NCBI GenBank assembly: GCA_020632015.1
Contig: JACKGI010000004.1
Location: 1-59,852 of the forward strand
Origin: Candidatus Nomurabacteria bacterium
GTDB taxonomy: Bacteria; Patescibacteriota; Minisyncoccia; Phycocordibacterales; UBA918
Direction: 5' to 3'
DNA: 59,852 nt
In this document: positions 877 to 59,265 of the stretch, in pieces
Layout of the letters: each line of letters opens with the position of its first letter
Position numbering within the stretch: position 1 is the first letter of the stretch
The notes under the pieces: generated by a model
What the model saw: only the letters and a program-made list of their open reading frames with translations
Database searches by the model: none
What the model was told of the DNA's origin: nothing
Program-made: the position numbers and the translations under genes

Positions 877-1455
877 ATGAATGGTGATGAAGATTTTTTA
901 TATGCAAAACATGATATATCTACTTCAAACGGAGAGTTTGTAGGGGTTCATGACGTCGGATTATTAAAGAGTTCAGATGGCGATAGCTGTACAGTCTTTT
1001 TTATTACTGCCTGGAAGGATATTGTTGTCCCATGTTCATCGGTAGAGATATTTGATGAAACCAAAACAGGAGATGGGTTTTCAAAGAAGATTTGCAATGT
1101 TTGCCACAAGCTTAAAAATACAAGCGATTTTGAACCAAATCAGACTGGTGTTAATAATAGGGTCGTAAGGAGACCCTCATGTTCTTACTGTCGAAAACAT
1201 ATAGACGGAAAGAAGATGGATAAGTCTGATTGGAAAGAGTGGCAAAAAACAAAACCAAACCGAGTTCCTTTCGAATGTCCTATTTGTGGTAAAAGAACCA
1301 TTGCTGGTGTAACCAGTAAGGTCGTTTTAGAACATGATCATAAAAATGGTGAGATTAGAGGTTGGGTTTGTGATAGTTGTAATACAGGTCTGGGTAGATT
1401 TAAGGATGATGTCGGAATCCTTAACAGAGCAATTAGATTTATTAGTGGAAGCTAG
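877..1455 (+). CDS. HNH / endonuclease VII-type (beta-beta-alpha-Me) nuclease, putative type II restriction endonuclease
   Basis: C-terminal EHDHKNGEIRGWVCDSCNTGLG matches the EndoVII/HNH signature (DH..G..RG.LC..CN..LG). Two CxxC pairs (CNVCH, CSYC, CPIC) suggest zinc fingers. Convergent with and abutting a DNA methyltransferase. Confidence 0.7.
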   Translation: MNGDEDFLYAKHDISTSNGEFVGVHDVGLLKSSDGDSCTVFFITAWKDIVVPCSSVEIFDETKTGDGFSKKICNVCHKLKNTSDFEPNQTGVNNRVVRRPSCSYCRKHIDGKKMDKSDWKEWQKTKPNRVPFECPICGKRTIAGVTSKVVLEHDHKNGEIRGWVCDSCNTGLGRFKDDVGILNRAIRFISGS

Positions 1456-2315
1456 TCTTTGTGCTCGTGTAGACGTTTTTTAGCTATTTCAACGTATTCT
1501 TCAGAAATATCACAGCCAATGTAGTTTCTATTGTTCAACATAGCCATCTTACATGTTGTTCCCGATCCACACATTGGGTCAAATACAACATCTCCTTCTT
1601 CCGACCACGAGAGTATATGGTCTTCAGCAAGTTTCTCTGGGAAGATTGCGGGGTGTTCAAAAGCAATTCTATCGCTGGTTGATCCATGTAGTCCAACCGC
1701 ATATTCCCATATATTTGTTAAAGTTTTTTCTGGCTTGAGCTCTTTCTTAATTTTTTTATTTACACCATCTGCTCCTTTGTTATGTGGAAGTGGCTCAATA
1801 CCTTGTCTTACAGTTTTTGTTTTTAATGGATTAAAGGTTTTTGGTGATGACTTTGTGAAAACAAACATGAACTCATAACAATTTGTGTATGCGTTTGATC
1901 GCATAAATGGTGTGTTCTTTTTCTTGTATATCATCACATCATGCACATTGAATCCGACCTGTTGAAAAAGCAGTGCTTGCTTAAAGCTGGTTAAGCTTTT
2001 GTTACCATTTTTAATTTTGTCTCCAACAACCCAAATAACAACCCCACCTTTTTTCATGACTGCGTAAAGGCTTTTTGCCATCCCTTCAAAATCAAAATGA
2101 TAACCCTTGTAATCTCTTAATTCATCGTACGGCGGTGATGTCACAACAAGGTCTATAGATCCTTCAGGGAAACTTTTCATTACCTCTACTGCATTACCAA
2201 CAACAAAATCATTAATTGGTAACTTTTCCTCTTGTCCTATCAATTTTTCTTGCTTTGGTTGGCTTACGACCTTGTTTTTGTTAGTTGTTTGATGCATTGC
2301 CTGTGATTTTATCAT
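1452..2315 (-). CDS. DNA methyltransferase, beta-class N4-cytosine or N6-adenine
   Basis: Motif IV TSPPY lies near the N-terminus and motif I FDPMCGSGTT near the C-terminus (beta-class order). Confidence 0.85.
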   Translation of the reverse strand: MIKSQAMHQTTNKNKVVSQPKQEKLIGQEEKLPINDFVVGNAVEVMKSFPEGSIDLVVTSPPYDELRDYKGYHFDFEGMAKSLYAVMKKGGVVIWVVGDKIKNGNKSLTSFKQALLFQQVGFNVHDVMIYKKKNTPFMRSNAYTNCYEFMFVFTKSSPKTFNPLKTKTVRQGIEPLPHNKGADGVNKKIKKELKPEKTLTNIWEYAVGLHGSTSDRIAFEHPAIFPEKLAEDHILSWSEEGDVVFDPMCGSGTTCKMAMLNNRNYIGCDISEEYVEIAKKRLHEHKD

Positions 2316-2330
2316 ATATACATTTTTTGT

Positions 2331-2436
2331 CGACGCAGCAGTTGCACTTGACTAAAGCCGCCCGCACTAGTCGCGCCCGCCTGCGGAGCTTCGCGCCGCG
2401 AGCTTGTGAGCGGTGTGAAGGGCGGGGTAAGGGCGG
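2331..2436. other. GC-rich structured intergenic segment inside the element
   Basis: A local run of GC-rich sequence in an AT-rich context. AGCCGCCC (about 2364) can pair with GGGCGGCT (about 2426), enclosing GAGCTTCGCG/CGCGAGCTT quasi-palindromes. Confidence 0.4.
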
Positions 2437-3054
2437 CTAAGAAAACCAAAGACCCAATTTGTTCCTGATTCTTGTAACCTCTATGCCAACATCAAAGTGT
2501 GCCTCTCTAGCAATCTTTGCTTGCAAGGCAATTATGTCCTTCGTCAGTTTTTGGCCATTGTCTTCTTTAATATTTTTCATGTCATCTTTGAAGTCACCAA
2601 TCATAAGTAGTTGCATACGTGTAAATGGTTTTAGTGCAACAGACTTTTCAGTTATTTCCTTTAATACTCCTTTGTGGCCCAGATATCTATACCAAGCCTC
2701 TTCACTGACCTTTTCCTTGTTTTCTTCCCATTTCTCCATAAAATTATCCATAGTTGCTTCTTTGCCAATAATTGGCATAGAGGCAATGGGGTTTGTAATT
2801 TCGTTAACACAATTTCTCATGGAAAGCAGCACGCCTAGAATTTCTTTTGCTTCCCTTGATCTAAGTTCATGACCGAACGTTTTAGATGTCCACCAAGCCG
2901 TAAAAATAGTTACTAAAGTTACTGCCATAGCTTGAAAACTACTTAATATAACTTGTGTTTTTTCAGGTGCGAAAAAAATACCTGAGATAATGGCTCCCAG
3001 AAGTAGTCCAATGACAAACATTAGAACATCTGCTTTTGTAATCAACTTTTTCAT
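2437..3054 (-). CDS. hypothetical membrane protein (two N-terminal TM helices plus soluble domain), element cargo
   Basis: 205-aa ORF with hydrophobic segments VLMFVIGLLLGAIISGIFF and AMAVTLVTIFTAWW. No motif recognised. Confidence 0.6.
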   Translation of the reverse strand: MKKLITKADVLMFVIGLLLGAIISGIFFAPEKTQVILSSFQAMAVTLVTIFTAWWTSKTFGHELRSREAKEILGVLLSMRNCVNEITNPIASMPIIGKEATMDNFMEKWEENKEKVSEEAWYRYLGHKGVLKEITEKSVALKPFTRMQLLMIGDFKDDMKNIKEDNGQKLTKDIIALQAKIAREAHFDVGIEVTRIRNKLGLWFS

Positions 3055-3297
3055 TTCCTATTTAAAATACAACATGATTTATAATTTTCTTCTTTACAAC
3101 ATACTTCTTTTCTTTTGTCCCGTAACTTTTTCAGCTAAACAAGAGTTTTAAAGCACAAGCTCTAAAGCAAGCTTAAATATAAAAAAGCTAACTGAGAGCT
3201 AAAAAGGATAAAAGAAGTCTAGAATCCTTAAGCTTTAAAATAGTTTAAGGAGTTTTTTGTGCCCGCATAACAGCGGGCTTTTCTTGTGCTTCAAAAC

Positions 3298-3365
3298 GGG
3301 GTTCCAGTCCCTGCACCAGCGGTTTCGCGGGGCAGGGATGGACCCCGGAGGGGGACTTGATTAAT
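3298..3365 (+). promoter_or_regulatory. candidate double-strand origin (GC-rich imperfect hairpin plus ACTTGATTAAT nick-like motif)
   Basis: GGGGTTCCAGTCCCTGC (3298-3314) pairs imperfectly with GCAGGGATGGACCCC (3332-3346). ACTTGATTAAT at 3355-3365 resembles the CTTGATA nick core of phiX174/pC194-type origins. It lies 33 nt upstream of the Rep start. Confidence 0.5.
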
Positions 3366-3397
3366 CCCTCACTTAACTAATTAACAACTTAAATTAA

Positions 3398-4183
3398 ATG
3401 TCATACATCAAAGTAACTACATACGGCGATTATGTCGAAATAAATGAATACGAACATGATCTTATACGAAACCATGACGGACGCGCAGGCCGGCGGTCGT
3501 CAGCTATTAGCAATGATAATTTGGGAACTAGCAGAGAGGATTCACTTCAGACCGGGGACAGTGAAGAAAAAGTGGGGCGCCGATCCGATAACGCGTGGCG
3601 CGCTAGCATGGCTTTCCGAAGGCTTGTTTCAGCTAACCTCGGGAGAGGATCTGCACCACCTCTACTGGCTACACTTACCTACGGGAGCAATTTCACCGAC
3701 CTTAGTGCGGCGTATAAACACTACTCAGCTTTTGCGCAATCTCTCAGACGCAAGTTCGGGCATGACTTTAAGTACCTATGCGTCCCAGAATTTCAAGAAC
3801 GTGGCGCCGTACATTTCCACGCTTTCCTCTGGGGGTTACCCGAAGAACTTTTTCTTCTGGAGAGGGAAAATCGTACCGTGGCACAAATCTGGAGCCATGG
3901 TTTTGTCGATCTCAAAAGAACAGATGGAGCAGGGGCGTTGGCTGGGTACCTAGCTAAATATCTAACCAAAGCCTATGAAGACCCGCGTCTCAAGAATCAA
4001 AAAGCATACACCGCTTCTCGCAATATCATTCGTCCTGAAGTGTTTACGGGGAACTTCAGTGCCGATCGCATTCTCTTTGAATTAGGGGTTGATTCTGAGC
4101 CTGAAGTCTCACGCGAATACAACACAAAGTGGTTTGGTCGTGCCACCTATCGCAAATACAAGATTAACCATGATGAGCCTTAA
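3398..4183 (+). CDS. rolling-circle replication initiator (HUH endonuclease, two-tyrosine type)
   Basis: Motif 1 LLATLTY, motif 2 VHFHAFLW (HUH), motif 3 YLAKYLTK (Y-x3-Y, compare phiX gpA YVAKYVNK). Confidence 0.8.
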   Translation: MSYIKVTTYGDYVEINEYEHDLIRNHDGRAGRRSSAISNDNLGTSREDSLQTGDSEEKVGRRSDNAWRASMAFRRLVSANLGRGSAPPLLATLTYGSNFTDLSAAYKHYSAFAQSLRRKFGHDFKYLCVPEFQERGAVHFHAFLWGLPEELFLLERENRTVAQIWSHGFVDLKRTDGAGALAGYLAKYLTKAYEDPRLKNQKAYTASRNIIRPEVFTGNFSADRILFELGVDSEPEVSREYNTKWFGRATYRKYKINHDEP

Positions 4184-4349
4184 GCATCTTAGAGAAATAG
4201 AACCTAAACTCGCTAATGCTTCTGATGAAGAAGTGGCTCTTATTCGTGAAAAAATCTATGAAGTGGCGCACCTTGCATACGATTCTTATAAAGAAGACCG
4301 TGATTCCAAATTCGCCGTGGGGTCAGCGGAAGTGGACGATGAAAAATAG
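4170..4349 (+). CDS. small hypothetical protein (59 aa) between Rep and recombinase
   Basis: ATGATG start overlaps the Rep stop, and the ORF ends 2 nt before the recombinase start. Tight operon-like packing; no motif recognised. Confidence 0.4.
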   Translation: MMSLKHLREIEPKLANASDEEVALIREKIYEVAHLAYDSYKEDRDSKFAVGSAEVDDEK

Positions 4350-4351
4350 CT

Positions 4352-5887
4352 ATGTATGATACTGATATGACAGGAAAGCGAGGGATTATCTATTGTCGCG
4401 TGTCTTCGCTCGAACAGGTGGATGGAACTAGTCTTGAATCACAGGAGCGGATTTGTCGTGAATATGCCGAACGTGAAGGTATAGAAGTTGCTGATGTGTT
4501 TGTTGATCGAGGCGAATCTGCTAAAACTGCCGATCGTCCTCAGTTTCTTAAAGCAATTTCATTTTGTGGTCAAAAGAAAAACCAGATTGATTTTTTCATA
4601 GTATATAAATTAGACCGCTTTTCTCGTAGTCAGACCGATCACTTCGCTGTTCAAAACAGTCTTAATAAATATGGTGTCACTATTCGCTCTGCTACTGAAC
4701 CGGTTGATGAATCACCAATCGGAAAATTCTTAATGGGCACATTGTCTGCTTCAGCTGAATTTGATAACAGTATCCGCTCTGAACGTAGCTCGACTGGTAT
4801 GCGAGAACGCCTTAAGCAAGGAATCTGGGTCTGGCCGGCTCCTACAGGTTATCAACGTCTAGAAAAAGGCGGCGTTATGGTGCCTGATAACGACGCTCAG
4901 TATGTCCGCCTCGCTTTCAATGAGTATGTGAAAGGGACTCATACATACAAAACTCTAGCCACTCTCTTATTTGAAAAAGGTCTACGCTCAAAATCTGGCA
5001 AAAAGATTGAGTTTCAAACTATTCAAAAAATGATCCATAACCCTCTGTATGCTGGTATCGTGAAAAAGGATGAATGGGGCATCGAAGTCAAAGGACAACA
5101 TGAACCTATTGTCACTGAGTCACTATTTTATAAATGCCAAGGTGCCGGACGGTCACATAAGGGAACAAAGAAACAAGAAAAGAATCCTAATTTTCCACTT
5201 CGCAGACTGGTTTCTTGCGAGTGGTGTGATGATCCATTAACAGGTAGCTTTTCGACTGGACGTGGTGGCAAGAAGCACGGTTATTATCATCATCACAAAC
5301 AAGGTTGTCCGCACGCTAAATCAATCAAAAAGAAAGACCTTGAAGAATCATTTGTCTCTTTTCTAGAGGAGATAAATCCTACCTTTGAATTTGCCAACGC
5401 TTTCAAAGAGGCGTGTATGGAAATTTATCGAGAAGATAACACCAATGCTGAAAAACAAAACGAGACGGTTAGACAGCAGGTCGCTAGCCTGTATGAGAAA
5501 AAGAAAGCCATCTTTAACAATTTTGAAGAGGGTATCTATACCAAGACTGACTTCTTAGAACGAAAACGAGAAGTGGAACGACAGCTATATGCCGCTCAAA
5601 GTAACTTGATTGAAGTGCGGGGTGGCGAATTAGACTTTGAAGCCGCTCTTGATTACTGCATAAGTTTCATTATTGATACTCCTGATACTTGGAAGCGATT
5701 GGTAAAACAGCCTGAAAAAAGGCTACGGTTCCAAAATTTTATTTTCGAGGGCAGTATTCCTTATACACAAAACAACGGTTTTGGAACCGCTGTTTTGTCG
5801 CCTATTTACTCACTATCTGAGGAGTATAAACGTGATAAATCTTCGTTGGTGATCCTACGGGGAATCGAACCCCGATTTCCAGGATGA
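4352..5887 (+). CDS. large serine recombinase (integrase)
   Basis: N-terminal resolvase catalytic motif IIYCRVSSLEQ, DRFSR, a recombinase domain, zinc-ribbon CEWCDDPL...C, and a coiled-coil tail. The 3' end overlaps tRNA-Glu on the opposite strand. Confidence 0.9.
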   Translation: MYDTDMTGKRGIIYCRVSSLEQVDGTSLESQERICREYAEREGIEVADVFVDRGESAKTADRPQFLKAISFCGQKKNQIDFFIVYKLDRFSRSQTDHFAVQNSLNKYGVTIRSATEPVDESPIGKFLMGTLSASAEFDNSIRSERSSTGMRERLKQGIWVWPAPTGYQRLEKGGVMVPDNDAQYVRLAFNEYVKGTHTYKTLATLLFEKGLRSKSGKKIEFQTIQKMIHNPLYAGIVKKDEWGIEVKGQHEPIVTESLFYKCQGAGRSHKGTKKQEKNPNFPLRRLVSCEWCDDPLTGSFSTGRGGKKHGYYHHHKQGCPHAKSIKKKDLEESFVSFLEEINPTFEFANAFKEACMEIYREDNTNAEKQNETVRQQVASLYEKKKAIFNNFEEGIYTKTDFLERKREVERQLYAAQSNLIEVRGGELDFEAALDYCISFIIDTPDTWKRLVKQPEKRLRFQNFIFEGSIPYTQNNGFGTAVLSPIYSLSEEYKRDKSSLVILRGIEPRFPG

Positions 5888-5921
5888 AAACCTGGCGTCC
5901 TGACCATTAGACGATAGGACC
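5847..5921 (-). tRNA. tRNA-Glu (anticodon UUC), CCA encoded
   Basis: Manual cloverleaf: GGTCCTA/TAGGATC acceptor, anticodon stem CCAGG/CCTGG with loop TTTTCAT, T-arm CGGGG-TTCGATT-CCCCG, ACCA end. Confidence 0.93.
5849..5863. repeat. 15-bp direct repeat GTGATCCTACGGGGA (att core, copy 2, inside tRNA-Glu)
   Basis: Identical to 794..808. Confidence 0.8.
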
Positions 5922-24223: not shown

Positions 24224-24601
24224 ATGAAAAAGATTTTATCATCTCTACTTCTGATTCCAGCAGTATTTCTACCACTTGTCTCATCAGCCCAAATTGCAAA
24301 TTCTTCTGATGCTGGCCCGTTTCAAGCATTGCTAGTCAATATCGTTACTTTTATTAATGATATTTTAATTCCGTTTATTATCGCAATCGGATTCCTATTC
24401 TTTGTTTGGGGGATGTTCCTTTACTTTATTTTAGGTGGAGCGGATGATGAAAAGAAGCTAAAAGGAAGGAGTTTAATGATTCACGCTACAATTGGTTTTG
24501 TAGTAATCATCATTTTCTTCGGAGTTGTAAACTTACTTACTTCTAGTACAGGGCTAGAAGGAGAGGCGCTCAGGAATATTCCGGCAGTAGAGATTCCGTA
24601 G
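24224..24601 (+). CDS. VirB2/TrbC-like pilin-family membrane protein, paralog 4
   Basis: Signal peptide, then LIPFIIAIGFLFFVWGMFLYFILGGADDEKKLKGRSLMIHATIGFVVIIIFFGVVN. Confidence 0.65.
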   Translation: MKKILSSLLLIPAVFLPLVSSAQIANSSDAGPFQALLVNIVTFINDILIPFIIAIGFLFFVWGMFLYFILGGADDEKKLKGRSLMIHATIGFVVIIIFFGVVNLLTSSTGLEGEALRNIPAVEIP

Positions 24602-24693: not shown

Positions 24694-25089
24694 ATGAAAA
24701 GAATTGGGTACATGATTGGAGGCTCAAGTTCAATCGCTCTTGCAGCACCATTGTTGGCTTTTGCACAGATTGCAGATCAAGCAAACGCAGGTGGTTTTGA
24801 GCAACTTTTGAGAAACATCCTTGAGTTTACAAATGGAGTTTTGATTCCATTTATTATCGGTATCGGTTTCCTTGTTTTTGTATGGGGAATGTTCCGATAC
24901 TTCATCGCTGGTGGAGCAAATGACGAAGCAAAGGCAAGCGGAAAGAGTTTAATGATCTACGCAACTCTAGGGTTCGTATTGATTATTGTGTTCTGGGGAA
25001 TCATCAACCTTATCAGCGGCAGTCTATTTTCAGACAGCGACACTCTAGATCAAAACCTAGTACCAAAGGTAGACAACCTGCTCCCATAG
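24694..25089 (+). CDS. VirB2/TrbC-like pilin-family membrane protein, paralog 5
   Basis: LIPFIIGIGFLVFVWGMFRYFIAGGANDEAKASGKSLMIYATLGFVLIIVFWGIIN, close to paralog 4. Confidence 0.65.
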   Translation: MKRIGYMIGGSSSIALAAPLLAFAQIADQANAGGFEQLLRNILEFTNGVLIPFIIGIGFLVFVWGMFRYFIAGGANDEAKASGKSLMIYATLGFVLIIVFWGIINLISGSLFSDSDTLDQNLVPKVDNLLP

Positions 25090-25184: not shown

Positions 25185-25610
25185 ATGGATCCACAACAGC
25201 AAGCAGCTAAAGAAGCAGCAGATTTCGTCACCAAGTTTAATGACATAATTCTTTTTCCCACCATCACACTACTTAGTGCAGTAGCTTTTTTAGTTTTTGT
25301 TTGGGGTTGTGTTGAGTACTTTATTGGTGCTGCTAATGAATCTAAGAGACAAGAGGGTGTTAAGCATATCACCTATGGGATTATCGGCTTGGTGGTAATG
25401 GTTTCAGCCTACGCTATTCTCGCCATCGCTACAGCAACCTTTGCGCTAGATGACGAACTAGAATGCGCCAACAACCCAACTGCTGCTCAGTGTACAAATG
25501 TGTTTAAGATACCTGATGGCGGAGGTGGCCCAGTTGTTCCAAATAGCGGCGGCGGAGGAGGCCCTGTTGTGCCAGGCGGAGGCGGCGGAGGTGGCCCAGT
25601 TGTTCCGTAA
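25185..25610 (+). CDS. VirB2/TrbC-like pilin-family membrane protein, paralog 6, with Gly/Pro repeat tail
   Basis: Core LLSAVAFLVFVWGCVEYFIGAANESKRQEGVKHITYGIIGLVVMVSAYAI. C-terminus carries three GGGGPVVP repeats. Confidence 0.65.
   Translation: MDPQQQAAKEAADFVTKFNDIILFPTITLLSAVAFLVFVWGCVEYFIGAANESKRQEGVKHITYGIIGLVVMVSAYAILAIATATFALDDELECANNPTAAQCTNVFKIPDGGGGPVVPNSGGGGGPVVPGGGGGGGPVVP
25518..25607 (+). repeat. three imperfect tandem repeats encoding (G)nPVVP
   Basis: GGCGGAGGTGGCCCAGTTGTTCC recurs three times with variable Gly-codon runs. Confidence 0.7.
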
Positions 25611-25624
25611 TATCTATTTATAAA

Positions 25625-28712: not shown

Positions 28713-28719
28713 GTTATTT

Positions 28720-28850
28720 GTGCGCAGGAGAGGACTTGAACTCTACGAGTTCAGTACAGGTTGTCGTTATTTTGTTCACAAGCTCCAAAATAACTGGCAA
28801 CCTTTTCAAACCCTCACACAAAGTCTTCCAGACTTTGCTTCCTGAGCACA
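28720..28850 (-). repeat. tRNA-3'-end-linked hairpin module, copy 1 (downstream of tRNA-Leu-UAG)
   Basis: 28720..28741 is a perfect 22-nt copy of the tRNA 3' end (28879..28900). 28805..28815 is an inverted T-loop/T-stem copy. Long hairpin at 28759..28802. The interior is homologous to the module at 38595..38706. Confidence 0.6.
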
Positions 28851-28879
28851 CAAAAACCCACCAAAGTGGGTTTTCTTAG

Positions 28880-38061: not shown

Positions 38062-38249
38062 CCAAAACAATACCCGCATTCTGCGGGTATTTTTTAGTGC
38101 GCTGGAATGACTGAGTTTAGAACCAGTATCATAGTGTCAGAATACTGTTTCTTGCCAAGTTTTATAAAGATGGAGGAAGTTTTTGCACAAAAAGAAAACA
38201 GCCCCAGCATGGAAACTAGAGCGTTTCCTTTACTAGGACTGATTAGGTA

Positions 38250-38510
38250 TTACTGCTTTACAAAAACATGGAAGATCAGAGTCCCGCCATGCATTTGGTA
38301 TGTATTTAGATAGACACCGGCTTCTCTGATAGGGTGTCCTGTGCCGTATGTTTGTATGACACACGGCTTCGTCTCGGCACTTGGGTCAACGAGTGCCCAT
38401 AGATACGGTGTTTCCCCTTGTGCCTGAACCGACAGCAGTTGAGCACCATCAGGTATTTGCACGGTCTGCTCGTTAGTTACTTCAAGTGGGAACTTCCAAA
38501 TGGTTTTCAT
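38250..38510 (-). CDS. hypothetical small protein (86 aa), GC-richer than the flanks
   Basis: MKTIWKFPLEVTNEQTVQIPDGAQLL...GTGHP...HVF pattern. I recall similar small proteins in phage or mobile contexts, but this is unverified. Confidence 0.55.
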   Translation of the reverse strand: MKTIWKFPLEVTNEQTVQIPDGAQLLSVQAQGETPYLWALVDPSAETKPCVIQTYGTGHPIREAGVYLNTYQMHGGTLIFHVFVKQ

Positions 38511-38594
38511 GTGTACCTCCTCAGGTAACGTAAGTGAAAGGGCGAAAATAAACTGAGTACAACTATACTCTATAAATGAATGTTGTCAAGGTTT

Positions 38595-38706
38595 GTGCGC
38601 CGGGCAGGAATTTTGGTCATTACATGACCGGTACAGGTTGTCAGTATTTTTGTTCCTCTGTCACAAAATACTAGGCAACCTCTTCAAATCCAGTGACCAC
38701 TGTCAA
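38595..38706 (-). repeat. tRNA-3'-end-linked hairpin module, copy 2 (downstream of tRNA-Tyr)
   Basis: 38595..38609 is a 15-nt copy of the tRNA-Tyr 3' end (38746..38760). 38683..38691 is an inverted T-loop copy (TTCAAATCC). Long hairpin at 38636..38680, homologous to copy 1. Confidence 0.6.
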
Positions 38707-38746
38707 AACAAAAAACCAGACACAAGGTCTGGAATTTGTTTCGAAG

Positions 38747-38829
38747 TGCGCCGGGCAGGATTTGAACCTGCGTAGGATAAATCCGTCAGATTTACAGTCT
38801 GATGCAATTGACCACTCTGCCACCGACGC
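38747..38829 (-). tRNA. tRNA-Tyr (anticodon GUA)
   Basis: GCGTCGG acceptor, anticodon stem TCAGA/TCTGA with loop CTGTAAA, long variable arm, T-arm GCAGG-TTCAAAT-CCTGC. Confidence 0.92.
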
Positions 38830-38999
38830 GTGTATATTTAATTGTATTTTGGAGTGTTGTAATATTTACCTCGTAGGGAATATACGTGGTCAATTACATT
38901 GTCCTCCTATCGCCTCGTAAACAAAGGCGATTCTGTCGCAAGCGACAGACCAGAGAAAATATAAAGCAGTTTATATTTTCTCCACTCTGCCACCGACGC
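38830..38999 (-). repeat. tRNA-5'-end-linked module upstream of tRNA-Tyr
   Basis: 38982..38999 is an 18-nt copy of tRNA-Tyr positions 1-18 (38812..38829). 38886..38899 is an inverted D-loop copy. Three hairpins at 38909-38931, 38933-38948 and 38953-38982. Confidence 0.5.
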
Positions 39000-39167
39000 A
39001 TATGTTCTTGTGTCTACTCAAAGAGATTCAATGAGTGGGAACAAAATAACACATTCGTATCATTTTTCAAAGCTCCATTGAGCATAAGTATCCAGAATTA
39101 CGCAAAAATAGTGTTTTTATTCTAAATACTTCTGCTAAAATTAGACTATTATAAAAACTATTACTTT

Positions 39168-40217
39168 ATGAAATATCTCCATCTTTTTGTTTTTTTATTT
39201 TTAGGCCTTTTAGTTTACATTTCTCCGGTAGAGGTTTTTGCTCAAGACCCAACAGGCTTGGTGCCTTGTGACGGCACAACAGAAAATCCATGTAATTCAT
39301 GCCAGTTAGTGGTGTTGGGAGAAAATATTTTGCAGTGGCTTATTGGTGTCATGCTGGTTATTTTTGCAATAATGGTTGCAATCTCTGGCTTTAACTTAGT
39401 TACTTCTGGAGGTAATCCACAAGCAAAAACAGAAGCAAAGAAGAAGCTAACCAATTCATTCGTTGCGATTGTTATTGTCTTGGCTGCTTGGTTGATTGTG
39501 GATACTCTGATGCGTTCGCTTCTGCTTGGCGGAGAAGGGCAGATTAATGGTCGTCCTTGGTCTACTTTAGAGTGTATTAATGCTACTGAGACAACTATGC
39601 CAAACAAAAATGAATTAAGTCCCACACTACAACAAGTTGAGGATCTGAAAGCGATGGGATGTCAGTTTAAGAATGGCAGAGAGGGGTGGTATTGTCCAAA
39701 TACTTCTTGCCGATATAGGGAGACTGAGGGTTGGTACAATTGTGCAGAAGGAGAAGTTCCTCCAGCTCCTCCTGAGCCAATAGCGGCTGCTGGTTTAGAA
39801 AATGCTTGTGGCGGTGGACCGTGTGTTCCTTTGGCTACAGTAGGCGTGCCATGTAAAGATCCAAACAGTTGTGCATTGGCACCTTCAACTCAGGAGAAGG
39901 TCGCCGCTTTCCATGCAGCTGCTGGTGTATCTGGAGCCAGAGTGACCGAAGCTATGCCTCCAACTCGAACACACAGTAACCCTTGTCATACAAATGGAAC
40001 TTGTATCGATTATGGTAAGGCTGGTGGTATGACTAATCAGGAGATAAAAGATGTTATTCAAGCTGCCGTAAACGCTGGTCTGTCTCCTAAGTACGAAGTC
40101 GGTACACAAGCTGAAGTTGATGTTTTGTTAGAAGCTGGTATTCCAGCTCAATATATCGAAAAGCCTTTAGGTAGCCATATAACGGCTCCACATTTTTCTA
40201 TTTATGATAATGGTTAA
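39168..40217 (+). CDS. VirB2/TrbC-like pilin-family N-terminal domain fused to a Cys-rich C-terminal domain (possible LAS/M15-like metallopeptidase)
   Basis: Signal peptide, then PCDGTTENPCNSCQLVVL...VMLVIFAIMVAISGFNLVTSGGNPQAKTEAKKKLTNSFVAIVIVLAAWLIV. The C-terminal HTNGTCID fits H-x2-G-x3-D (H-x6-D) of VanX/M15-type zinc sites, a weak match. Confidence 0.65.
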   Translation: MKYLHLFVFLFLGLLVYISPVEVFAQDPTGLVPCDGTTENPCNSCQLVVLGENILQWLIGVMLVIFAIMVAISGFNLVTSGGNPQAKTEAKKKLTNSFVAIVIVLAAWLIVDTLMRSLLLGGEGQINGRPWSTLECINATETTMPNKNELSPTLQQVEDLKAMGCQFKNGREGWYCPNTSCRYRETEGWYNCAEGEVPPAPPEPIAAAGLENACGGGPCVPLATVGVPCKDPNSCALAPSTQEKVAAFHAAAGVSGARVTEAMPPTRTHSNPCHTNGTCIDYGKAGGMTNQEIKDVIQAAVNAGLSPKYEVGTQAEVDVLLEAGIPAQYIEKPLGSHITAPHFSIYDNG

Positions 40218-40259
40218 ATAAACAAAGACTGGCGGTATGCCAGTCTTTGTTTATTTATG

Positions 40260-40330
40260 CGGGTCCACGAGGACTCGAACCTCGGCCGACGGTTTTGGAG
40301 ACCGTTGTTCTACCACTAAACTATAGACCC
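40260..40330 (-). tRNA. tRNA-Trp (anticodon CCA)
   Basis: GGGTCTA acceptor, anticodon stem ACGGT/ACCGT with loop CTCCAAA, T-arm CGAGG-TTCGAGT-CCTCG. Confidence 0.92.
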
Positions 40331-41978: not shown

Positions 41979-42016
41979 GTGATGTAAGAAGCCGGCCCTG
42001 AAGGGGCCGGCTTTTT

Positions 42017-42120
42017 GGTGCCTCGAGAGGGAGTCGAAACTTACAGTTTCAGTACCCGTTTTGGATGGATTACTTCGTTCCTTATAATCCATCTCAAAAC
42101 AGCTTCGACTCCCTCAACCA
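42017..42120 (-). repeat. tRNA-3'-end-linked hairpin module, copy 3 (downstream of tRNA-Leu-CAA)
   Basis: 42017..42038 is a perfect 22-nt copy of the tRNA 3' end (42158..42179). 42104..42115 is a perfect 12-nt inverted copy of the T-loop/T-stem. Long hairpin at 42058..42100. Confidence 0.6.
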
Positions 42121-42159
42121 AAACAAAAACCAGACGCAAGGTCTGATTTCTTATTTCGG

Positions 42160-55908: not shown

Positions 55909-56358
55909 ATGGCACAAAAAAAGAAAAAGGCAGAAATGTCATCAACACAAAAGATTGGGATAGGAGTTGGTCTGACTGCAGCAGCAGTTGCCGCCGCTGG
56001 AACATATTTTTTGTATGGAAGCAAAAGCGCAGCTAAGAATCGAAAGGCGGTGAAGAGCTGGGCTCTAAAGGCAAAAGCAGAAGTACTTGAGAAGCTTGAG
56101 GATGCAAAGGAGATGACTCAAGAAGAGTATGAAGAAGTAATCAATGCTGTAGCTGGAGCATATGCAGGACTAAAAACTGCTTCAAAAGTAGACATTAAGG
56201 CTTTCAAGGATGAAATGAAGGATCATTGGAAGGCTATTGAAAAATCTGCCGCACCGATGAAAAAAACAGCTAAAAAGACAGTAAAGAAAGCAGTAAAAAA
56301 GGCAACAGTAGCAAAGAAGACAGTAAAAAAAGCTGCAAAAAAGACAACAAAGAAGTAA
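55909..56358 (+). CDS. YtxH-like protein with Lys/Ala-rich histone-H1-like tail
   Basis: Gly/Ala zipper helix GIGVGLTAAAVAAAGTYFLYGS followed by KKTAKKTVKKAVKK repeats. Confidence 0.5.
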   Translation: MAQKKKKAEMSSTQKIGIGVGLTAAAVAAAGTYFLYGSKSAAKNRKAVKSWALKAKAEVLEKLEDAKEMTQEEYEEVINAVAGAYAGLKTASKVDIKAFKDEMKDHWKAIEKSAAPMKKTAKKTVKKAVKKATVAKKTVKKAAKKTTKK

Positions 56359-59062: not shown

Positions 59063-59117
59063 CATAATTTAGTTTGACCCCAATGCGCATGCATTGGGGT
59101 CTTACTAAATTACCTGA

Positions 59118-59265
59118 CTACAGGGACTCGAACCGAGACGGCGCGAAGCCCGACGAAATGAAATGGAGTCGGAGCCGTCGAGTGGGGGTCGAGGGAGTGA
59201 GATATTTTGAGTTCAAAGAACGAAAAAAATATCCACGAGAGTGACCGATTCCCTGTCCGGCAGCA
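59118..59265 (+). repeat. tRNA-3'-end-linked hairpin module, copy 4 (downstream of tRNA-Gln)
   Basis: 59120..59134 is a perfect 15-nt inverted copy of the tRNA T-arm (59041..59055). Hairpin at 59137..59179. 59250..59265 is a 16-nt direct copy of the tRNA 3' end (59049..59064). Confidence 0.55.

Follow-up and report, generated by a model that had tools for sequence, protein, structure and literature searches.

Downstream of tRNA-Tyr in a 59,852-nucleotide stretch of the genome of a Candidatus Nomurabacteria bacterium (the window), we analysed a short non-coding module that belongs to a large family found in Patescibacteria. We interpret its members as miniature, protein-less integrative cassettes that lodge in the 3′ parts of tRNA genes and whose hairpins act single-stranded, a reading to which we give a probability of roughly 0.55. 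The presence of the module at tRNA-Tyr, first reported in a preliminary description made from the sequence, is confirmed.

Architecture of the tRNA-Tyr locus

The features of the locus, with the basis of each assignment in brackets, are:

38747–38829, minus strand: tRNA-Tyr(GTA), one edge also called at 38746 (ARAGORN; Rfam RF00005, 62.4 bits)
38704–38746, minus strand: trailer and intrinsic-terminator-like hairpin (sequence)
38683–38703, minus strand: small hairpin H1, then arm GGATTTGAA (9-nt inverted match)
38636–38680, minus strand: P2, a long hairpin (covariance model; covariation)
38630–38635, minus strand: conserved single-stranded joint (invariant columns in alignment A1)
38615–38629, minus strand: P3, a 6-bp hairpin with a GTA triloop (covariation)
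38595–38614, minus strand: X′, distal copy of the tRNA-Tyr 3′ end (repeat search against shuffles)
38830–39000, minus strand: mirror-image module upstream of tRNA-Tyr (inverted and direct match search)
38097–38594, minus strand: next cassette in the array (sequence; relatives L223 and L254)

The part of tRNA-Tyr from the T-loop to the 3′ end, denoted X, is both duplicated and complemented downstream. ARAGORN and Rfam placed the tRNA on the minus strand, as proposed, and the CCAGAC/GTCTGG terminator claimed behind it was found as CCAGAC-CTTGT-GTCTGG at 38716–38732, followed by a T run. Trailer and terminator belong to the swapped cassette, unrelated ones being present at the orthologous locus L258. 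H1 (CAGTG-GT-CACTG, 38691–38702) has covarying stems in other copies, where its loop reads YGGGR. The arm next to it complements positions 54–62 of tRNA-Tyr, in the T-loop and T-stem, and pairs with the tRNA at 10 of 12 positions, against 5 of 12 for X′. An inverted T-loop copy had been noted here at 38683–38691; the inversion stands, but the strand labels given to it were wrong, TTCAAATCC being the plus-strand reading and GGATTTGAA that in tRNA orientation. ARAGORN called no tRNA at the module arm.

The long hairpin described at 38636–38680 was recovered as P2, with an outer stem GGTTG/CAACC, an internal loop CC/GA and an inner stem TAGTATTTTG/CAAAAATACT, and P3 (GGTCAT-GTA-ATGACC) was found in addition, directly abutting the distal tRNA-end copy. 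The joint between them is TGTAC plus one base; across the wider family it is NNTAC, with GGTAC, TCTAC and TATAC found in copies that have other P2 stems. X′ consists of 15 exact nucleotides (38595–38609, tRNA positions 60–74), as originally claimed, preceded by AAAAT (38610–38614), and this 15-nt repeat gave 2 matches in the window against 0 expected from 100 shuffles. Extension of the copy by a 1-nt indel did not hold up, since it needs a 2-nt ‘AT’ insertion (CAAA[AT]TCC); this AT, carried in the AAAAT, is a junction scar that recurs throughout a subfamily. Between the window and L252, from the same species, the 657-nt spacer differs by 4 SNPs, 2 of the 4 lying within the 15 nt of X′.

Upstream of tRNA-Tyr, the mirror-image module contains an 18-nt copy of the tRNA 5′ end (38983–39000), three hairpins and a spacer or promoter region. 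Its segment AATTGACCAC (38886–38895) is complementary to the D-loop, covering positions 15–24 as against positions 1–18 in the copy, and thus spans the junction. The mirror module is 87% identical to three tandem copies ahead of tRNA-Tyr in L221 and is missing at the orthologous locus L258. On the other side of X′, the next cassette carries a sigma-70-like promoter, a DUF7352 gene (38250–38510) and another remnant of the tRNA-Tyr end, now decayed (ATTCCAGCGCAC, 38097–38108); the end of this cassette, ..GTTCTAA..C|ATTCC..GCGCAC, recurs in L223 and L254.

The core family, its base pairing and its arms

Whether other tRNA genes carry the module had been left as a question, and they do: both tRNA-Leu copies, a tRNA-Gln module with a different core and more than 160 copies beyond the window were found. 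A covariance model built from relatives identified three core-family copies in the window, behind tRNA-Leu(TAG) (28714–28816, 99.5 bits), tRNA-Tyr (38589–38694, 84.6 bits) and tRNA-Leu(CAA) (42012–42115), with E-values of 1e-20 to 1e-27. The last of these had been left out of the training set, yet scored 74.1 bits. On the sense strand the window copies scored 74–99 bits, compared with at most 15 on the antisense strand. The additional modules in the window are:

28714–28878, minus strand: copy behind tRNA-Leu(TAG) (covariance-model match 28714–28816)
42012–42157, minus strand: copy behind tRNA-Leu(CAA) (covariance-model match 42012–42115)
59064–59264, plus strand: type B module, with a different core, behind tRNA-Gln (match search)

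The tRNA-Leu(TAG) copy comprises a terminator, an anti-acceptor arm, H1 (CAAAGTCT-GGA-AGACTTTG), an anti-T arm (GAGGGTTTGAA), the core and a 22-nt tRNA-end duplicate at 28720–28741. Its tRNA-Leu(CAA) counterpart has the same architecture, with a 12-nt anti-T arm, a 22-nt duplicate and different P2 stems (GTTTTG/CAAAAC and ATGGATTA/TAATCCAT). The tRNA-Gln module combines a terminator, a 15-nt anti-T arm (59120–59134), two or three hairpins and a 15-nt tRNA-end duplicate (59250–59264); its type B core was also seen in L105, L159, L162, L221, L223 and L258.

A first pattern used on a genome collection, with 17 fixed bases, proved too loose, about 105 of its 119 matches being chance coding matches and about 14 true modules. 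The covariance model gave 162 matches in 577 kb of contigs (metagenome and Patescibacteria), up to 5–6 per 9 kb, positioned 57–96 nt behind tRNAs of 18 isotypes and occurring in several Patescibacteria classes. The general order is tRNA, trailer (usually with a terminator), tRNA-complementary arm, core and a 13–24-nt copy of the tRNA 3′ end. At most of the approximately 60 loci beyond the window this distal copy is exact over 19–24 nt. The arm reaches over the T-loop, the T-stem and often the acceptor 3′ strand, the anti-acceptor part being missing in many copies. The core (P2 hairpin, NNTAC, P3 hairpin with GTA triloop) is about 110 nt long and alignable end to end, and whole cassettes measure 110–190 bp and contain no ORF. 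Around one-third of tRNA genes carry at least one cassette, on contigs that were sampled because they bear modules. Several unrelated cores follow an identical arm logic, and in a tRNA-Trp family tRNA and module stand without an intervening terminator. Some core copies stand in tandem away from tRNAs.

Base pairing in the core is maintained through sequence change. Across 71 sequences, 92% of cells were paired compared with 78% after shuffling, and cells with double changes numbered 292 versus 92; with 132 distinct sequences, the values were 92% versus 69.5% and 722 versus 192, and structures slid by 1–3 columns fell to 37–49% paired. Compensatory changes were found at 27 of 28 pairs, among them 5/5 in outer P2, 8/8 in inner P2 and 5/6 in P3 (132 distinct copies), with 95–99% of P3 cells paired. 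Double changes in every core helix, far above the shuffled and slid controls, bear out the proposal that the hairpin is a selected secondary structure whose pairing is kept while its sequence shifts. A dimeric protein binding the palindromes as duplex DNA was rejected, because their bases covary rather than stay constant. The stems are about 97% Watson–Crick with few wobbles, and G.U-type pairs outnumber A.C pairs on the tRNA-sense strand by about 2 to 1 (59 versus 30, and 40 versus 21), a mild asymmetry that would suit RNA made from the tRNA strand too.

The end segments had been said to switch to the local tRNA, and this proved general: at 18 isotypes the distal copy matches its neighbouring tRNA over 19–24 nt, and the arm follows too. 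Where tRNA and distal copy differ, the arm follows the functional tRNA by 16 to 3, which weakens our initial assumption that it pairs mainly with the distal copy; distal copies are often decayed while the arm keeps its complementarity to the real tRNA. At tRNA-Ala (L105, L192) the arm has A opposite U70, where the tRNA itself has G3, and in L159 it reads GACCCTA versus GGCCCTA in the tRNA. Pairing continues past the discriminator into position 74 and the trailer. These arms perfectly complement the 3′ strand and so rule out an internally deleted copy of the neighbouring tRNA, which would have kept the 5′ acceptor strand of that tRNA with its G.U pairs. In these genomes, ‘CAA’ after the discriminator is usual for tRNA genes. 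Acquiring an 11-nt perfect complement to the acceptor strand of a new tRNA is a difficulty for the cassette reading, since point mutation would seem too slow for it and copying from a template (palindrome extension or template switching) is no more than a conjecture.

Turnover at the tRNA-end site

Comparison of related loci shows that, after insertion, an intact tRNA is followed by the cassette and then by the displaced or duplicated tRNA end, which decays. In the window, att-type direct repeats flank the inserts (15 nt at Tyr, 22 nt at both Leu, 15 nt at Gln), each of which adjoins an intact tRNA on one side; a perfect repeat makes the point of insertion ambiguous by its nature, and with it the choice of element-borne copy. 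Orthologous sites are polymorphic for presence and absence. No cassette follows tRNA-Trp in the window, but L133, L172 and L250 have one or two there. At tRNA-Tyr, L258/L259, from a sister lineage, share with the window an identical tRNA and an identical right flank from the distal copy on, but have a type B cassette and another terminator. L254, a strain of the same species whose contig begins before any tRNA, shows one more cassette end directly upstream of the cassette described here, at the place taken by tRNA-Tyr in the window. The cassette sets at the tRNA-Leu(CAA)/ParB locus differ among the window, L049, L162 and L224.

The tRNA end serves as a reusable attachment site, subject to tandem piling and to swaps between lineages, and shared with gene cassettes and large serine-recombinase elements. 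Tandem arrays, some with identical units, were found in L072, L162, L215 and L187, chimeric arms in L049, and identical cores with different arms 0.8 kb apart in L153. Gene cassettes bounded by matching tRNA-end remnants occur at 38097–38594 in the window and in L159 and L223; since such gene-bearing cassettes have no core, integration at the site does not strictly depend on one. Large serine-recombinase elements also sit at tRNA genes in these genomes, beside tRNA-Glu in the window (4352–5887) and in L231, where the modules lie outside the recombinase element and are older than it.

Proposed nature of the cassettes and rival readings

We infer an identity block that starts in the T-loop (after C56 or at position 60) and ends at the discriminator, which would point to insertion by recombination inside this block, through an enzyme whose gene lies outside the cassette. 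Core hairpins and tRNA-pairing arm may be cis-acting signals read single-stranded, folded single-stranded DNA being likelier than RNA; this would account for the conservation of pairing over sequence and for an arm matched to one particular tRNA. A DNA-level role fits better than an RNA gene, because inspection by eye showed no promoter in front of the window copies and a terminator usually stands between tRNA and module. By analogy with integron attC sites or the CTX-phage attachment hairpin, the strand might fold to imitate its duplex target. Work on attC and on the folded single-stranded attP of CTX-phi and other Xer-exploiting elements describes recombination sites that act as folded single strands (PMC4792948, PMC3442271). 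The modules resemble these sites in conserving structure over sequence, in forming arrays of short cassettes at one site and in the proposed external enzyme. Palindromic arms, conserved structure and arrays are all seen in the modules, and a hairpin of this kind would explain the tRNA-complementary arm. The modules differ from them in having a tRNA gene rather than attI or dif as target and in a core sequence that is itself strongly conserved (GGTTGCC..GACAACCTGTAC..GTA).

ORF clustering within 5 kb of 131 modules revealed no enriched recombinase, transposase or reverse transcriptase and no integron integrase; the ORFs there were housekeeping only (ParB, MiaA, IF-2, ClpB, RbfA) plus a single family of HTH-only proteins. 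Neither excised nor circular cassettes were seen. Both results weigh against the cassette reading, as do the absence of the module from viral contigs, the gene cassettes that have no core and the core copies away from tRNAs. With Rfam 15, only tRNAs passed the gathering thresholds on either strand of the whole window, permissive scans of three module regions gave unrelated microRNA or sRNA models at best (E ~0.1), and neither inspection by eye nor Rfam found hammerhead or other small ribozyme cores. Our literature search returned no description of a tRNA-linked module. A T-box or other tRNA-sensing leader was rejected, there being no Rfam T-box match and the complementarity involving T-arm and acceptor strand instead of the anticodon or CCA.

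Integrative elements of tRNA genes (prophages, ICEs and genomic islands) duplicate the tRNA 3′ part as their att core, and the tycheposons of Prochlorococcus form tandem arrays with integrase-less satellites. Like such elements, the modules have a direct repeat from T-loop to discriminator and would restore the tRNA with element-borne sequence, new insertions enter at the tRNA-proximal copy while older remnants lie outward and decay, and the site is shared with recombinase-bearing elements. Unlike them, the modules are only 110–190 bp long, hold no genes and no integrase, and possess a covarying hairpin core and a target-complementary arm; moreover, a single core family is found at 18 or more tRNA isotypes, a breadth beyond the one or few targets that are normal for a family of integrases. 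REP/REPIN sequences are mobilised by RAYT transposases, and MITEs or PATEs are IS200/IS605 derivatives. The modules share with these a length of about 100 nt, a non-coding, hairpin-forming nature great abundance in intergenic DNA, often near terminators, non-autonomy, short invariant motifs (here TAC and GTA) beside covarying stems, and the occurrence of some tandem copies away from tRNAs. REPINs and MITEs, in contrast, have neither target-matched arms nor 15–24-nt target duplications, and the modules lack transposon-type terminal inverted repeats, with no TnpA or RAYT seen, the scan for RAYT covering the large ORFs of the window. A MITE was rejected on the grounds that the inverted segments are tRNA-derived arms that differ per locus and that the duplication is 13–24 nt (longer if the terminator is included) and target-defined.

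Several other readings account for part of these observations. A host-serving non-coding RNA for each tRNA, read through from the tRNA promoter and with an arm that switches between the tRNA 3′ half and the distal copy, is a real if doubtful possibility; it could act in 3′ processing through a tRNA-like minihelix (RNase P/RNase Z), in read-through disposal or in tRNA sensing or titration. The conserved, covarying structure, the mild G.U excess on the tRNA-sense strand, the sense-strand bias of the model scores and the arm's lasting complementarity to the functional tRNA all suit it, and anti-acceptor arm, H1, anti-T arm and distal copy can be drawn as an acceptor/T-stem minihelix. In the tRNA-Trp family, moreover, the missing terminator means that tRNA and module must be co-transcribed. 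Yet most copies lie behind a strong terminator with no promoter visible by eye, the stems hold very few wobbles for a functional RNA, and the distal copy that a tRNA-like fold needs is often decayed. Patchiness even among close relatives, with about one-third of tRNAs affected, frequent tandem and decayed copies and unrelated cores sharing one arm logic also speak against it. Integration into tRNA genes classically leaves direct repeats of the part between T-loop and 3′ end, and the modules might be ordinary scars, functionless attR ends left by prophages or integrative elements (with a tyrosine or serine integrase) that have since been deleted. The repeats themselves, the serine-recombinase elements sitting at tRNA genes here and the decay of distal copies agree with this, but independent deletions would not leave one ~110-nt core at 18 tRNA kinds in several classes, and neutral remnants would neither covary in every helix nor hold an arm complementary to the tRNA. 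Given also that the L231 modules are outside and older than the recombinase element, and that the module was absent from viral contigs (12 pattern matches, all coding-sequence coincidences, and so no evidence for the core as a phage attP arm), we consider scars improbable.

An RNA of retro-element type, using a tRNA-like 3′ tag or the arm as primer-binding site, with a reverse transcriptase elsewhere and re-entry by tRNA-gene homology, is likewise improbable. In the manner of a retroviral primer-binding site, the arm does complement the last 20–24 nt at the tRNA 3′ end, and in the tRNA-Trp family the proximal copy encodes CCA while the distal copy and the empty site do not. This retro-origin signature, an encoded CCA on the element-borne copy, fails in general, since encoded CCA is not enriched at module-bearing tRNAs (7/66 versus 14/110). 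Many copies lack the anti-acceptor part, which would leave the tRNA 3′ OH unpaired, H1 interrupts the arm, and the 5 kb around the 131 loci held no reverse transcriptase. Chance or low-complexity resemblance in A/T-rich intergenic DNA, named at the outset as what might undo the observation, has only the A/T-rich inner P2 stem in its favour; it is refuted by the shuffles of the 15-nt repeat (0 expected), the E-values, the more than 160 further copies and covariation far above controls, and its probability is negligible.

Returning to integrative cassettes, the arm might be a nucleic-acid guide that chooses the target tRNA gene, folded on the tRNA-end copy or paired with the gene directly. With one conserved hairpin scaffold and an exchangeable match of 12–24 nt, that would make integration naturally retargetable with a helper or host enzyme, the mirror 5′ module being a second independent example; we put this forward very tentatively. 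Guides are known from mobile elements such as group II introns (EBS/IBS), IS110 (bridge RNA) and TnpB/IscB (omega-RNA with a flank-derived guide), with which the modules share a structured scaffold adjoining a target-matching segment that is complementary and, in the 5′ module, junction-spanning. They differ from these in the lack of a protein gene, in longer matched segments (12–24 nt) and in duplication of the target, and Rfam gave no match of the module to group II intron, bridge or omega RNAs.

The module appears to represent a type of miniature mobile cassette, not described before, in the ultra-small bacteria of the Patescibacteria (CPR). As about one-third of tRNA genes on module-bearing contigs are occupied, the cassettes matter for genome organisation in these tiny, streamlined genomes. 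They likely contribute to assembly breaks, since several contigs of the window's species end inside the tRNA-Tyr spacer. Chimeric arms account for some rearrangements, and the arrays take up new genes, such as the DUF7352 cassette. The family, at present unannotated, merits a covariance model, as prophage borders can be wrongly read into its copies of tRNA ends. If the arm is a guide or a folded attachment site, these cassettes would represent a compact, naturally retargetable integration system.

Anatomy of the module behind tRNA-Tyr

Inspection of the non-coding module behind tRNA-Tyr (38595-38829, minus strand) bore out the elements of the preliminary description: tRNA-Tyr, a terminator hairpin, an inverted T-loop copy, a long hairpin and a 15-nt copy of the tRNA end are all present in the sequence. 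The inverted T-loop match is real, but its strand labels had been exchanged, and the end copy can be extended, although this requires a 2-nt AT insertion rather than the 1-nt indel proposed. A full module comprises ten parts.

Parts of a full module, in the direction of the tRNA
Part 1, tRNA
Part 2, trailer, usually a hairpin-plus-T-run terminator
Part 3, first arm, reverse-complementary to the 3' strand of the acceptor stem, the discriminator and the next base
Part 4, hairpin H1, with a covarying stem and GGG-like loop
Part 5, second arm, complementary to the 3' strand of the T-stem and to the T-loop
Part 6, AA or GA
Part 7, hairpin P2; in the commonest type, outer stem GGTTG/CAACC, internal loop CC/GA and A/T-rich inner stem
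Part 8, joint of TGTAC plus one base
Part 9, hairpin P3, a 6 bp stem with GTA triloop
Part 10, tRNA copy from the T-loop to position 74

The resulting cassette spans ~110-190 bp between two copies of the tRNA 3' segment. The acceptor-strand arm can be a perfect 11-nt complement of its tRNA, and the left arm often extends the terminator stem, with tRNA end, terminator and arm forming a single long interrupted palindrome (contigs L192 and L159). In most copies, core and end copy join after C56 (..GCTTC/GAATCC); in one subfamily, which includes the tRNA-Tyr copy, the junction is at position 60 and an AT is added. The tRNA-Tyr copy is a reduced form, with a short H1 and without the anti-acceptor arm.

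Covariation and the pairing kept by the arm

Covariation, the check named in the preliminary description, gave compensatory changes far above shuffled controls. In a hand-defined structure, 92% of cells were paired, compared with 78% after shuffling, and double changes were found in 292 cells (92 when shuffled); sliding one strand by 1-3 columns reduced pairing to 33-49%. In a wider model-aligned set, which leans towards the model by construction, 27 of 28 pairs showed compensatory changes. The outer P2 stem, held fixed by the search pattern in the first set, showed them in 5 of 5 pairs of the wider set. The module structure is thus under selection. Covariation also rules out duplex protein-binding sites as the cause of the palindromes. 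The stems are ~97% Watson-Crick, and G.U-type pairs outnumber A.C pairs ~2:1 on the tRNA-sense strand, an excess that weakly favours this strand and is compatible with both RNA and single-stranded DNA.

The case for a closing helix, originally drawn to join the arm to the distal copy (the downstream duplicate of the tRNA 3' end), was weakened. At loci with a diverged distal copy, pairing of the arm favoured the real tRNA in 16 cases and the copy in 3, of which two are register artefacts. For tRNA-Tyr, the arm pairs at 10 of 12 positions with the tRNA and at 5 of 12 with the distal copy. The tRNA-Tyr locus in another sample of the window's species (L252) is identical save for 4 differences in 657 nt: 2 in the 15-nt distal copy, 1 in the H1 loop and none in the core or T-loop-complementary arm. 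The distal copy thus behaves as a remnant in decay, and it is to the functional tRNA that the arm is kept complementary. We ruled out the arm as a copy of the tRNA 5' strand, as it carries A opposite U70 at tRNA-Ala; it is genuinely complementary to the 3' strand.

Distribution across tRNA genes and hosts

All nine window tRNAs were searched for copies of their own ends. The Leu and Tyr modules of the preliminary description were recovered, together with a tRNA-Gln module missing from its list; nothing comparable lies behind tRNA-Glu, Lys, Leu(TAA), Cys or Trp of the window.

Further modules in the window
Behind tRNA-Leu(TAG), module with 22-nt end copy (own-end scan)
Behind tRNA-Leu(CAA), module with 22-nt end copy (own-end scan)
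59064-59264, plus strand, tRNA-Gln module with type B core, 15-nt anti-T arm (inverted T-arm copy) and 15-nt end copy
38830-39000, minus strand, mirror-image 5' module upstream of tRNA-Tyr, with 18-nt tRNA 5'-end copy, three hairpins and 10-nt D-loop complement

The tRNA-Gln core is unrelated to type A, with the same arm logic. Other contigs carry type B cores behind tRNA-Ala, Glu, Leu and Tyr, at times in tandem with type A. The D-loop complement of the 5' module extends across the point where the duplicated segment ends; this module occurs three times in tandem before tRNA-Tyr in L221 (9640-10170) and is absent before tRNA-Tyr in L258.

Scanning species-representative genomes with a loose pattern yielded mostly chance matches alongside ~14 true modules, and a stricter scan of metagenomes found at least 120 contigs with the module. 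Sixty non-redundant modules each begin 57-96 nt downstream of a tRNA in the same orientation and include an exact 19-24-nt copy of its end. Modules accompany 18 tRNA isotypes, and 66 of 176 distinct tRNAs have an own-end copy downstream in the sampled contigs, a sample biased to module loci. A covariance model built on 71 copies found exactly three copies in the window, among them the one behind tRNA-Leu(CAA), whose stems differ and which lay outside the training set; across 577 kb of contigs it found 162. In the minority of copies away from tRNAs, a constant hairpin of their own replaces the tRNA-derived arms.

Among named genomes, the module was verified in Saccharibacteria, Kaiserbacteria, Parcubacteria, Vogelbacteria and Paceibacteria, all Patescibacteria; the one exception, a 'Patiriisocius' MAG contig, is syntenic with the window and was probably mis-binned. 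Candidatus Saccharibacteria are the window's nearest relatives among named genomes, and gene content and synteny suggest that the window itself comes from a Saccharibacterium. The window is cellular DNA (~41% G+C) with genes for GyrA, ClpB, TopA, RelA/SpoT, a short IF-2, ParB, MiaA and a type IV secretion pilin. Its plus-strand GC skew is positive almost throughout, while the minus strand encodes 8 of the 9 tRNA genes; these would run against replication, provided the skew marks the leading strand.

Several other features were observed. Three small paralogous ORFs (24224-24601, 24694-25089 and 25185-25610) share a conserved hydrophobic segment, and at the end of the last, three 33-nt repeats (25518-25616) code for Gly/Pro-rich units. 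ORF 55909-56358 contains degenerate ~40-nt, lysine/alanine-rich repeats at 56256-56349 (AAAAAGACAGTAAAGAAAGCAGTA..), which suggests the tail of a histone-like or nucleoid protein. In tRNA genes of the sampled genomes, with or without a module, the discriminator is mostly followed by CAA (or CAG/CAC), not an encoded CCA. ARAGORN missed one tRNA gene of L072 (2670-2960, minus strand) that is split in the anticodon-loop region by a ~230-nt insertion, possibly a group I intron; at least three modules stand in tandem behind it.

Cassette turnover and candidate mechanism

Orthologous tRNA-Tyr loci were located via the neighbouring DUF7352 gene. The sister lineage L258/L259, at 80% protein identity, shares tRNA-Tyr with 100% identity and keeps the right flank from the distal copy onward; all that lies between is another cassette, formed by a different terminator, a type B core and a tRNA-Tyr arm. 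At the tRNA-Leu(CAA)/ParB locus, four contigs carry four different cassette sets. The window's tRNA-Trp (40217-40330) has only a 20-bp-stem terminator and no module; relatives with an identical tRNA-Trp 3' end have one or two cassettes, the tRNA-proximal copy encoding CCA, and the window locus is a useful empty-site reference. Arrays hold two to five units, with neighbours sometimes identical. L153 carries two copies 0.8 kb apart with identical cores and arms for tRNA-Lys and tRNA-Leu, and chimaeras in L049, with the arm from one tRNA and the end copy from another, fit recombination between dispersed cores.

Window features at the tRNA-Tyr and tRNA-Glu sites
38097-38594, minus strand, DUF7352 gene with its own TTGACA/TATAGT promoter, between two tRNA-Tyr 3'-end remnants
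1452-2315, N6/N4 DNA methylase, part of a putative element at tRNA-Glu (1452-5921)
3398-4183, RepSA/G2P-type rolling-circle replication protein, same putative element
4352-5887, large serine recombinase, 3' end overlapping the 3'-terminal 40 nt of tRNA-Glu, which is on the opposite strand

After the tRNA-Tyr end, the array runs from the module through a first end copy to the DUF7352 cassette and closes with a second, decayed copy and a terminator; the DUF7352 gene appears to be a gene cassette of this array. Gene cassettes at this site have no core. In a further strain (L254), the tRNA-Tyr module cassette is identical, and the end of a different cassette lies directly upstream of the trailer, at the position that tRNA-Tyr occupies in the window. 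That end is homologous to a gene-cassette end in L223 and to the right end of the DUF7352 cassette (..GGTTCTAAACTCAGTC/ATTCCAGCGCAC), which is conserved in both contigs. The tRNA-Tyr end thus serves as an attachment site. Together, differences between close relatives and stacking in arrays are evidence that the cassettes are mobile. At tRNA-Glu, 1452-5921 is a probable integrated element, with no distal border found in the window. A similar recombinase overlaps tRNA-His in L231, where an 8.4-kb serine-recombinase element separates this tRNA from two older modules. Large elements of this kind thus also use tRNA genes in the genomes that carry modules.

We propose that insertion would occur by recombination within the shared tRNA segment, with an enzyme acting in trans; no recombination enzyme genes were enriched near modules. 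Where the tRNA-end repeat is perfect, either end copy could be the cassette-borne one. Hairpins and arm may serve as cis signals read single-stranded, the folded strand imitating a duplex target as do integron attC sites and the CTX-phi attachment hairpin. The main rival, an RNA serving the host as a processing aid or as a switch between arm:tRNA and arm:copy pairings, is most plausible for the tRNA-Trp family, which has no terminator before its modules. We nevertheless consider it rather unlikely and favour folded DNA as the acting form, because wobble pairs are rare, terminators usually separate the module from the tRNA promoter, and reading the window copies by eye showed no promoter in front of them. 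The 15-mer of the tRNA-Tyr end occurs twice in the window and in none of 100 shuffles, and chance similarity is improbable; plain integration scars, set beside a structure under selection, are likewise unlikely, as is a retro-element.

No Rfam family matches the module, and no description was found in the literature searched. Att-type duplication and array behaviour are shared with tRNA-targeting integrative elements, but the module has no integrase. It resembles REPIN/MITE-type repeats in size, abundance and hairpins, without their transposon-type terminal repeats and fixed short duplication, and follows the structure-over-sequence logic of attC sites outside an integron context. On these grounds we treat the module as akin to the tRNA-integrative, REPIN/MITE and attC-like kinds but as belonging to none.
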